A DNA stretch of 63,076 nt, counting the filler, from Reclinomonas americana ATCC 50394 (Eukaryota): NCBI GenBank assembly GCA_048213135.1. It is 40 parts of 40 records of this genome, joined end to end, with 100 filler letters (N's around TTAATTAATTAA, not from the genome) between each part and the next. Parts side by side here need not be neighbours in the genome. Positions count along the whole stretch, not along the records: positions 41,172 to 42,646 come from AFZH01025564.1; 39 more parts are not named here. One strand, given 5' to 3'. Position 1 is the first letter of the stretch. Every line of letters starts with the position of its first letter. The notes below the pieces were generated by a model. The model saw nothing but the letters and a program-made list of their open reading frames with translations. It was not told where the DNA came from and ran no database searches. The translations under genes and the position numbers were made by a program. This document shows positions 41,172 to 42,646 of the stretch, in pieces.

Positions 41172-41243
41172 AGAGAACACCGCAGCAGCGTGTCCAACCA
41201 AACGTCTGTAGAGGGAGATGGAGCGATGCGGGGTGTGTGACAT
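41172..41243 (-). CDS. Start of the next WD40 cassette (cassette 3), truncated by the contig end
   Basis: (MSHTPHRSISLYR)RLVGHAAAVFS, with upstream DNA homologous to that of cassette 2. Confidence 0.75.
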
Positions 41244-41345
41244 GAGGAGTGATGCGCAAAGGGGTGGGACACAGACGTGTCGACGCTTGAGTGCGCCCCT
41301 TCATAGTAGACCTCTTTACTAGAACAAAGAAGTAATGCCAACGAT

Positions 41346-42437
41346 TTACAAACGCGAGTCGGGATCTACGCTGCGTCGGTGCAGCACGACCGCGGCATCT
41401 TCGACAATGAAACAGCGCAGCACCATCTCCGGCAGGCAGCGGGAGTCAATAACCTCGTCTGCACTTTCCTGCATCTCCTGCACGGCCAGCAGGGCCGACC
41501 GCGCGCTGTCCAGCTCCAGCCGAGCGAGACCATATGGAGTGGACCACACTCGCACAATGCTGTCGTCGCCTCCACTTACAATGTGCTGACCATCGGCGGA
41601 GACAACAGCAGAAGTCACATCGTGAGGGCGTTCCTCCAGCCGCTGCACCTCCTCTCCACTCGCCAGCGACCACACTCGCACGGTGCCGTCGGCGCACCCG
41701 CTGACAATAAACTGGCCATTGGGGGTGACAGCGACACTGCGCACCCATTTCGTGTGCCCCTTCAACCGTCGCACTTCCTCACCAGTCGCCAGTGACCACA
41801 CTCGCACAGTCTGGTCCCAACTCCCACTCACAACGAACTGTCCGTCAGGAGTGACGGCGACTGAAACCACTGCATCATCATGTCCCTCTAGACGATGGAC
41901 TTCGTCGCCTCTCGCCAGTGACCACACAAGCACAGTGCCGTCGGAACCCCCACTCACAATGTGCTGACCATTGGGAGTGACGACGACAGAGCCCACCGCG
42001 CATCTATGTCCCTGGAACCGTCGCACCTCCTCGCCACTCGCGAATGACCACACGCGCACGGTCTGGTCATAACTCCCACTCACGACATGCTGACCGTCGG
42101 GAGTGACCACAACACTGCGCACCCAGGCAGTGTGCCCCTCCATCCGTCGCACCTCTTGGCCACTCGCCAGTGACCACACGCGCACAGTGTTGTCACCACT
42201 CGCGCTGATGATGTGCTGACTGTCGGGAGTGACAACAACGAAGCTCACTGTGTGAGAGTGCCCCTCCAGCCGTCGCACCTCCTTTCCGGTCGCCAGTGAC
42301 CACACTCGCATTGTTCTGTCGAGACTCCCACCCACGACGTACCGACCGTCGGGAGAGATGGCGACGCAGTATAACTCGCCAGTGTGCCCAGTGAAACGCC
42401 TGCAGCGGAAGATGGTGCGTTGCGGGGTGAGTGACAT
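41346..42437 (-). CDS. Seven-bladed high-identity WD40 cassette with a conserved C-terminal tail (cassette 2)
   Basis: Seven 42-aa repeats, then STPYGLARLEL...VLRCFIVEDAAVVLHRRSVDPDSRL*. It begins at ATG 42437 or at the acceptor 42400/42399. Confidence 0.92.
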   Translation of the reverse strand: MSLTPQRTIFRCRRFTGHTGELYCVAISPDGRYVVGGSLDRTMRVWSLATGKEVRRLEGHSHTVSFVVVTPDSQHIISASGDNTVRVWSLASGQEVRRMEGHTAWVRSVVVTPDGQHVVSGSYDQTVRVWSFASGEEVRRFQGHRCAVGSVVVTPNGQHIVSGGSDGTVLVWSLARGDEVHRLEGHDDAVVSVAVTPDGQFVVSGSWDQTVRVWSLATGEEVRRLKGHTKWVRSVAVTPNGQFIVSGCADGTVRVWSLASGEEVQRLEERPHDVTSAVVSADGQHIVSGGDDSIVRVWSTPYGLARLELDSARSALLAVQEMQESADEVIDSRCLPEMVLRCFIVEDAAVVLHRRSVDPDSRL

Positions 42438-42593
42438 GAGGGGTGCGTGTGTGGGAGGGGGACGATGATTGAAGTGGGACACAATGCAATATCGCCGACG
42501 ATGGAACTGCAAAGCGCCCGAGTACGACAGTAGATTCACTAAAGAACACATACACAAACACCCAAGAGCAGACAGGAAACACCCCCCATGGAT

Positions 42594-42646
42594 TCAAAAA
42601 CACGAATTGGGGTCGACGCTGCGTCTGTGGACGATGACCGCGGCGT
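42594..42646 (-). CDS. 3' end of the preceding WD40 cassette (cassette 1)
   Basis: AAVIVHRRSVDPNSCF* is paralogous to the cassette 2 tail AAVVLHRRSVDPDSRL*. Confidence 0.85.

Follow-up and report, generated by a model that had tools for sequence, protein, structure and literature searches.

A possible tandem array of stand-alone WD40 propeller genes on an unplaced contig of Reclinomonas americana

We analysed a stretch of 63,076 nucleotides (nt), filler included, from Reclinomonas americana ATCC 50394 (assembly GCA_048213135.1), here called the window, and within it the contig at positions 41172-42646 (AFZH01025564.1), which carries head-to-tail cassettes encoding WD40 propellers. In the window, 39 artificial linkers of 100 bp join 40 contigs, which are 1466-1497 bp long and stand in rough order of size. 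Each linker consists of 44 N, TTAATTAATTAA and another 44 N (for example at 1498-1597 and 3092-3191), and the 12-mer TTAATTAATTAA is seen 39 times in the window at a step of about 1,580 bases. Because the contigs were concatenated artificially, adjacency in the window has no meaning, and the contigs at 60377 and 11145, which hold relatives of the cassettes, are not physical neighbours of the array. Positions 41172-42646 are exactly one unplaced contig of 1,475 bp. We observed on it the tail end and stop of a first cassette, a complete second cassette and the first 34 nt of a third, arranged head to tail. Coordinates below are those of the whole window, and all parts of the array lie on the minus strand:

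42594-42646, minus strand: end of cassette 1, with the last 16 codons of its tail at 42644-42597 (AAVIVHRRSVDPNSCF) and a TGA stop at 42596-42594; cut by the contig end.
42400-42593, minus strand: spacer 1, with 194 nt separating stop and CAG; the cassette frame stays open across it, and conservation is poor over the first 150 nt.
42400-42439, minus strand: copy 1 of a conserved 40-nt block, with an in-frame ATG (42437-42435), a CTCAC motif, a C-rich tract and the CAG (42402-42400).
41541-42399, minus strand: propeller of cassette 2, seven WD40 repeats, six of them full units of 42 amino acids (aa) and the first without its first 8 residues.
41346-41540, minus strand: tail of cassette 2, 64 aa with two predicted helices, ending in -SRL, with a TAA stop at 41348-41346.
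41206-41345, minus strand: spacer 2, 140 nt, in which three more stops lie in frame; copy 2 of the block, with an ATG at 41243-41241, makes up its last 40 nt (41206-41245).
41172-41205, minus strand: start of cassette 3, the first 34 nt of a first blade (RLVGHAAAVFS); cut by the contig end.

Cassette 2 as a whole runs from 42399 to 41346 and is an intact frame of 351 codons counted from the CAG, or 363 codons counted from the ATG. All three cassettes lie in one reading frame, with 1194 nt from ATG to ATG and 1248 nt from stop to stop, and the tail ends of cassettes 1 and 2 form a direct repeat at a spacing of 1248, identical at 39 of 51 nt (76%). From the preceding stop to the in-frame ATG, the distance is 156 nt for the ATG at 42437 and 102 nt for that at 41243. 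An earlier note, made from the sequence alone, had placed the cassettes, both spacers, the stops and these ATGs at the same positions, and all of them hold on the minus strand; its remark that the spacers have no room for an N-terminal domain is also sound, since 140-194 nt is too small for a NACHT domain. Of the head-to-tail array that it described, the tandem order in one frame stands, while the array itself is represented by only one complete and two cut units on a single 1,475-bp contig. The open frame of spacer 1 is unremarkable, as 22% of shuffles are open too, and spacer 2 holds three more stops in frame, so that the shared frame and the open spacer carry no weight. On these same two grounds we rejected stop-codon read-through. 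Outside the 40-nt block, most of the two spacers cannot be aligned to each other. Between cassettes, one of which is complete, comparison is limited to 16 aa of tail and 11 aa of first blade, and over these stretches the earlier description of the cassettes as hypervariable between one another is not supported. The C-terminal -SRL of cassette 2, which we take to be a tripeptide like the peroxisomal targeting signal type 1 (PTS1), differs from the ends of cassette 1 (-SCF), of the relative at 60377 (-RAP) and of the two database relatives P0122 and P0123.

Both contig ends fall within sequence conserved in the family, one of them 247 nt upstream of the CAG junction of cassette 2. The two overlapping contig ends differ by 20-40% and the longest exact repeat inside the contig is 22 nt, which together make a collapsed single-copy artefact unlikely; judged from the sequence, the tandem units would be diverged paralogues and not a collapsed repeat. 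An origin of the contig in a bacterial contaminant is likewise unlikely, as a relative known from an expressed sequence tag (EST) and the eukaryote-like spacers speak against it.

The propeller of cassette 2 is highly repetitive. Pfam WD40 (PF00400) recognises seven stretches (E 2.4e-78, 255.7 bits against a cut-off of 27), and the repeat period is 126 nt. Pairwise identity of the blades within the cassette is 55-74% at the protein level and 63-77% at the DNA level (15 pairs among the six full 42-aa units). Blades 5 and 6 are closer in protein (69%) than in DNA (63%), which indicates synonymous change. By eye, the blades differ mainly at the three residues after GH, at the residue after the next V, at the residue after DGQ and at the residues flanking the conserved D. 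For structure prediction with AlphaFold2 we used the 363-aa model that begins at the ATG and an alignment of 28 rows, of which four were from the family and 24 were generic WD40 sequences picked from 120 listed. The result was a closed seven-bladed propeller spanning residues 12-299, with 28 strands at a predicted local distance difference test (pLDDT) score of 93-99; the mean pLDDT was 90.9 and the predicted template modelling score (pTM) 0.84. Its first strand, residues 12-15, is placed one codon ahead of the CAG. In the tail, a confident helix at 301-329 is followed by a weak one at 337-355. Foldseek aligned the model to the WD40 domain of PkwA and to seven-bladed WRAP-T designs with template modelling (TM) scores of 0.96-0.97. 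In this model the propeller fold is complete without any extra domain, and the seven-bladed cassette with a tail that the earlier note had read from the sequence agrees with both the Pfam stretches and the predicted fold. No chain covering the leader or the tail was found by sequence and Foldseek searches of the PDB.

The tail is rare. In an exhaustive profile search of 1,835,955,588 representative proteins, it matched only P0122 (116 aa) and P0123 (394 aa), at E 1.3e-19 and 9.3e-10, and no tail-bearing protein longer than 394 aa was present among these representatives. P0122, a fragment of one blade and the tail, is the product of a Reclinomonas americana EST, EC795383.1 (EukProt EP00694), and at least one member of the family is therefore transcribed. 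P0123 is a 394-aa propeller with tail from a Logan contig of 2,262 bp. The alignment with cassette 2 covers P0123 from residue 14 to the end (24% identity, E 5e-23). P0123 has a Met three residues before its first d-strand, the same boundary as in cassette 2. In all three proteins the tail core VLRCF(I/V)xE(D/E)A directly follows the last blade. P0122 and P0123 thus have the tail in common with cassette 2, and P0123 also its approximate overall size and start boundary; on the other side, the propeller of P0123 is only 24% identical to that of cassette 2 and its blades are degenerate, and P0122 consists of only one blade and the tail. A generic homologue search with the cassette gave only WD40 look-alikes, the best of them 59% identical over 76% of the query, and no match of the query to itself. 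Metagenome scans with a single tail and with P0123 returned no relative, and a tail search in the ESM Atlas gave only scores of at most 0.80, which are noise. A word-based tail search among shorter proteins was blank, but it missed even P0122 and is given no weight.

The two complete spacers end alike. From TCATG to CAG, the 40-nt block is identical at 34 of 40 positions (85%), compared with 8 of 30 directly upstream, 20 of 34 (59%) at the downstream blade start and 27-62% for the flanks overall. A 25-nt motif of the block occurs at these two sites only in the window, with 0 expected, and the homology of the spacer ends claimed in the earlier note is well founded. The short motif CTCATGTC showed no enrichment as a genome-wide element (7 matches against 3.7 expected in the search). 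From the ATG to the propeller, both complete spacers can be aligned without a gap, and the leaders translated from the block ATGs are MSLTPQRTIFRC and MSHTPHRSISLY. The same block also holds the CTCAC motif, the C-rich tract and the CAG. Neither copy is structured as RNA (folding z +0.56 and +0.76), which rules out a structured RNA element. Rfam and tRNA scans of the window found no match, and a scan for bacterial promoters and terminators gave irrelevant matches only.

We see about an even chance that the contig is a fragment of a head-to-tail array of stand-alone paralogous genes. Every unit, about 1.2 kb long, would then be its own gene, encoding a protein of about 360 aa with a short disordered leader, a complete, consensus-like and highly repetitive seven-bladed WD40 propeller and a lineage-restricted helical tail of about 64 aa. 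Translation would start at the conserved in-frame ATG 35 nt before the CAG, and the 40-nt block would serve as a gene-proximal leader and control region, each unit probably being expressed separately. The propellers may act as protein-binding modules whose blades vary mainly after GH and before the conserved D, and the family would have grown by tandem duplication and divergence. We favour stand-alone genes because the fold is complete, the ATG is conserved, P0123 starts at the same boundary, no longer tail-bearing forms turned up and the spacers have the sizes found in a jakobid. Tandem paralogous genes are, furthermore, common, and arrays of whole-domain alternative terminal exons are not. 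Concerning spacer size, the genome report of the jakobid Andalucia godoyi describes closely packed genes 44-691 nt apart (PMC7050145), a range that includes both stop-to-ATG distances on the contig. The spacing of same-strand neighbours there is of the same order as the 102-194 nt seen here, though the packed genes are unrelated neighbours in another species and the units on the contig are tandem paralogues (PMC7050145). If these are ordinary tandem genes, they form a lineage-restricted family, with a tail known from just two further representatives among 1.84 billion protein clusters, and the family would be growing through tandem duplication in a part of the eukaryotic tree that is poorly sampled. 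Such a family would be useful for annotation and as a source of possible binding modules, and would be unsurprising.

Several observations weigh against stand-alone genes, one of them made on a relative elsewhere in the window. Two other contigs of the window carry WD40 relatives of the cassettes:

60378-60656, plus strand: family relative, one WD40 blade with a homologous 54-aa tail and a TGA stop, on the contig at 60044-61510.
11224-12633, plus strand: paralogue of other architecture, pentapeptide repeats running straight into at least nine WD40 repeats, on the contig at 11145-12633.

The start assigned to P0123 was chosen by a gene caller, on a contig of 2,262 bp, and residues 1-10 of the AlphaFold2 model are disordered (pLDDT about 52). 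All six differences between the block copies alter the encoded residue (L/H, Q/H, T/S, F/S, R/L and C/Y); together with the disorder of residues 1-10, this suggests that the block is kept as nucleotides and not as peptide, although six changes are too few for a test. The spacers contain no recognisable promoter, and the block is their sole conserved part. It also resembles the inferred 3' splice sites of the dynein and COG6 introns in the window, with their CTCAC, C-rich tract and CAG. Lastly, the relative at 60377 has an acceptor-like end and the phase 2 of the cassettes, with no ATG between its CAG and its tail.

The likeness to intron ends, pointed out in the earlier note, is real but does not extend to all introns of the window. 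The dynein intron was inferred from contiguous Pfam DHC_N1 coordinates (305-434 and 435-562) in two frames, and the COG6 gene has three inferred introns with ends of the CTCAC, C-rich and CAG type. In the four introns of a gene with EGF/laminin-like repeats, by contrast, CTGAC or CTAAC stands 20-21 nt ahead of a T-rich tract and YAG. Pyrimidine-rich sequence also precedes what is likely a genuine start codon in another part of the window (ATG 39908), and such an appearance is thus not specific to introns. The relative at 60377 is preceded by 330 nt or more of non-coding, pyrimidine-rich sequence with the end ...ttctcacag...gcgcag; downstream of the CAG a single Met lies in frame, close to the end of the tail. 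From its sequence it looks like a terminal exon or a relic. The phase-2 entry that the earlier note had reported for both cassettes and this relative, taking the CAG as an acceptor, holds in all three as a matter of phase, but the junction at 60377 is about 2 codons further upstream in the repeat than those of the cassettes. On the same contig, CCCTCATGTCGC, which is like the start of the block, recurs at 60946-60957. On the contig at 11145-12633, the pentapeptide repeats are recognised by Pfam and join the WD40 repeats without an intron, and the frame is broken three times, at about 11385, about 11946 (an 11-nt AT-rich insert) and about 12267; going by the sequence, this WD40 gene is a presumptive pseudogene or poorly sequenced.

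It is unlikely, though not to be dismissed, that the CAG is a real cis-splice acceptor in any form, with the cassette a terminal exon duplicated along with the 3' end of its intron. The cassettes could then be alternative terminal exons on a shared upstream exon, which was the first of the two models of the earlier note, or one could be used and the rest be relics. The island of conservation spans exactly the branch-like CTCAC, the C-rich tract and the CAG, as in inferred introns of this genome. The six non-synonymous block differences in the ATG frame and the relative at 60377, an apparent ATG-less terminal exon in the phase of the cassettes, point the same way, and the block is unstructured as RNA, as expected of a splice region. 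The contig, however, offers no upstream exon or donor. A NACHT exon, as the earlier note had proposed, has no candidate: the 125 scanned open reading frames (ORFs), out of 135 of at least 140 aa in the window, contain no NACHT domain, and the pentapeptide repeats at 11145 meet the WD40 repeats directly. The lack of a tail-bearing protein above 394 aa among the 1.84e9 representatives also argues against splicing onto an upstream exon, as does the offset of about 2 codons at 60377. Cassettes 2 and 3 share their phase simply by descent, which leaves one independent comparison, and each cassette would need its own polyadenylation site and an intron end within 140-194 nt. A further reading, to which we give only a small chance, makes the 40-nt block a dedicated acceptor by which propeller-tail cassettes are chosen, either as alternative terminal exons or chained via the phase-2 GTAAAT at the stop. 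Were it true, this protist would draw whole binding domains from a tandem archive at the RNA level, exchanging them or linking them in series. Should the block prove to be a used splice site, it would represent a rare example of a protist choosing whole-domain cassettes at a gene's 3' end. Of the two models in the earlier note we therefore prefer the second, compact stand-alone genes: the boundary shared with P0123, the closed fold and the absence of a longer tail-bearing protein from the profile search favour it, and the non-synonymous variation of the block stands against it.

A small chance goes to two further possibilities: the contig belongs to a decaying or silent repeat family, consisting of pseudogenes or serving as a donor archive, or paralogues were joined into it by chimeric assembly. 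The contig is an unplaced one of 1.5 kb with both ends in family-conserved sequence, three breaks interrupt the frame of the paralogue at 11145, only one blade is present in the relative at 60377, and the window contains other near-duplicate contigs. Against decay, cassette 2 is intact over 363 codons and some blade pairs are closer in protein than in DNA, as for pair 5-6 with 69% against 63%; against a chimera, no exact repeat longer than 22 nt is there to mislead an assembler.

There is a slim chance that the array is one precursor cut into units by spliced-leader trans-splicing and polyadenylation, as in Euglenozoa or dinoflagellates. Discoba, the probable lineage here, includes trans-splicing groups, and the units are on the same strand, head to tail, with short spacers and a pyrimidine tract and AG before each. 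A second AG behind a pyrimidine tract lies 30-57 nt past each stop (ttctttag in spacer 1, ttgttctag in spacer 2). The conserved CAG, however, is downstream of the sole usable ATG, so that its use would cut off the start, and the next Met is inside blade 1. Rfam found no RNA family in the window, spliced-leader RNA included, which is weak evidence. The terms 'spliced leader' and 'trans-splic' do not occur in the Andalucia genome paper (PMC7050145), and among the titles retrieved from literature holding both 'spliced leader' and 'jakobids', none has both terms.

Serial fusion of the units is very improbable. An optional intron from a phase-2 donor at or near the stop to the next CAG would remove stop and spacer and join the units in frame. 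At 41349, ttt/GTAAATCG overlaps the TAA of cassette 2 in phase 2 (GTAAAT), and splicing from there to 41206 would remove 144 nt and keep the frame. The three cassettes do lie in one frame (1194 nt between ATGs, 1248 nt between stops), but splicing needs no shared frame, and the shared frame is thus no support for fusion. Cassette 1 lacks a GT at the corresponding place and offers no more than a weak GTGTTT, 9 nt ahead of its stop. Chance alone would fairly often put a phase-2 GT close to a stop codon, and the tail profile search of 1.84e9 representatives found no multi-propeller protein with internal tails. One giant gene with its tails spliced out was rejected, as there is no credible phase-2 donor between blade 7 and the stop except the GTAAAT at the stop.

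We also compared the array with known systems. The earlier note had called it HET-E-like, and this did not survive the domain search. We found no NACHT, NB-ARC or HET domain in the ORF of the contig, where only WD40-type families were recognised, nor in the 125 scanned ORFs of the window; the remainder of the 135 are the WD40 ORFs, frames overlapping the WD40 contig and the EGF-like gene, and three low-complexity ORFs at 36709-37786. On its predicted domain content, cassette 2 is not a HET-E/HNWD receptor: a search for the NACHT and HET domains that define such receptors found neither. The contig blades, at 55-74% identity, also appear less alike than those of the HNWD family. The fungal HNWD/HET-D/HET-E proteins do have, as here, a WD-repeat domain of similar blades in a multigene family, together with the HET and NACHT domains that are missing from the contig cassettes (PMC1805685). 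Repeats of the HNWD family undergo concerted evolution and exchange between loci, with positive selection acting on four surface residues in each (PMC1805685).

Closer likenesses come from propellers of known structure. The best sequence match (E 1.7e-123) is 2ymu, a 'highly repetitive propeller structure' whose 577 residues are about twice the aligned region, and 5yzv, the WD40 domain of PkwA, reaches TM 0.96-0.97 at 38-40% identity to the propeller of cassette 2. In 2ymu, 5yzv, WRAP-T and Tako8, as in cassette 2, the blades are far more alike than in ordinary WD40 proteins. These proteins are without the leader and tail of cassette 2, and the matches span residues 12 to 299 only. By analogy, the propeller may work like other consensus-type WD40 binding modules. 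We know of no tandem gene array for 2ymu, PkwA, WRAP-T or Tako8. Tandem homologous coding cassettes, each behind a conserved acceptor-like sequence, are a feature of alternative last exons and of clusters of mutually exclusive exons such as those of Dscam. Unlike the members of Dscam-type clusters, the contig cassettes each have their own stop and their own possible ATG and comprise a whole domain.

Other contigs of the window hold unrelated sequence. Ordinary eukaryotic genes include the N-terminal region of a dynein heavy chain (35270-36341, plus strand, split by an intron of 85 nt), COG6 (38197-38697, plus strand) and gemin2/SIP1 (55454-56407, minus strand). The dynein exon has its best identity, 46%, to a protein of Andalucia godoyi, which is consistent with a jakobid, though the match is not close. 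The contig at 4786-6278, with about 63% G+C and ORFs of the M20 peptidase and beta-lactamase families, may be bacterial (prey or contaminant) and not eukaryotic. Two pairs of contigs are near-duplicates over their full length, 19064-20546 and 33293-34768 at 96% identity and 31717-33192 and 49045-50517 at 93% in reverse orientation; these are repeat copies or haplotypes. At 45897-47370 on the minus strand, we observed tandem, near-identical, Cys-rich EGF/laminin-like exons of about 230 nt each, separated by introns of 66-70 nt of the form GTTGGT or GTTCGT ... CTGAC or CTAAC ... YAG.

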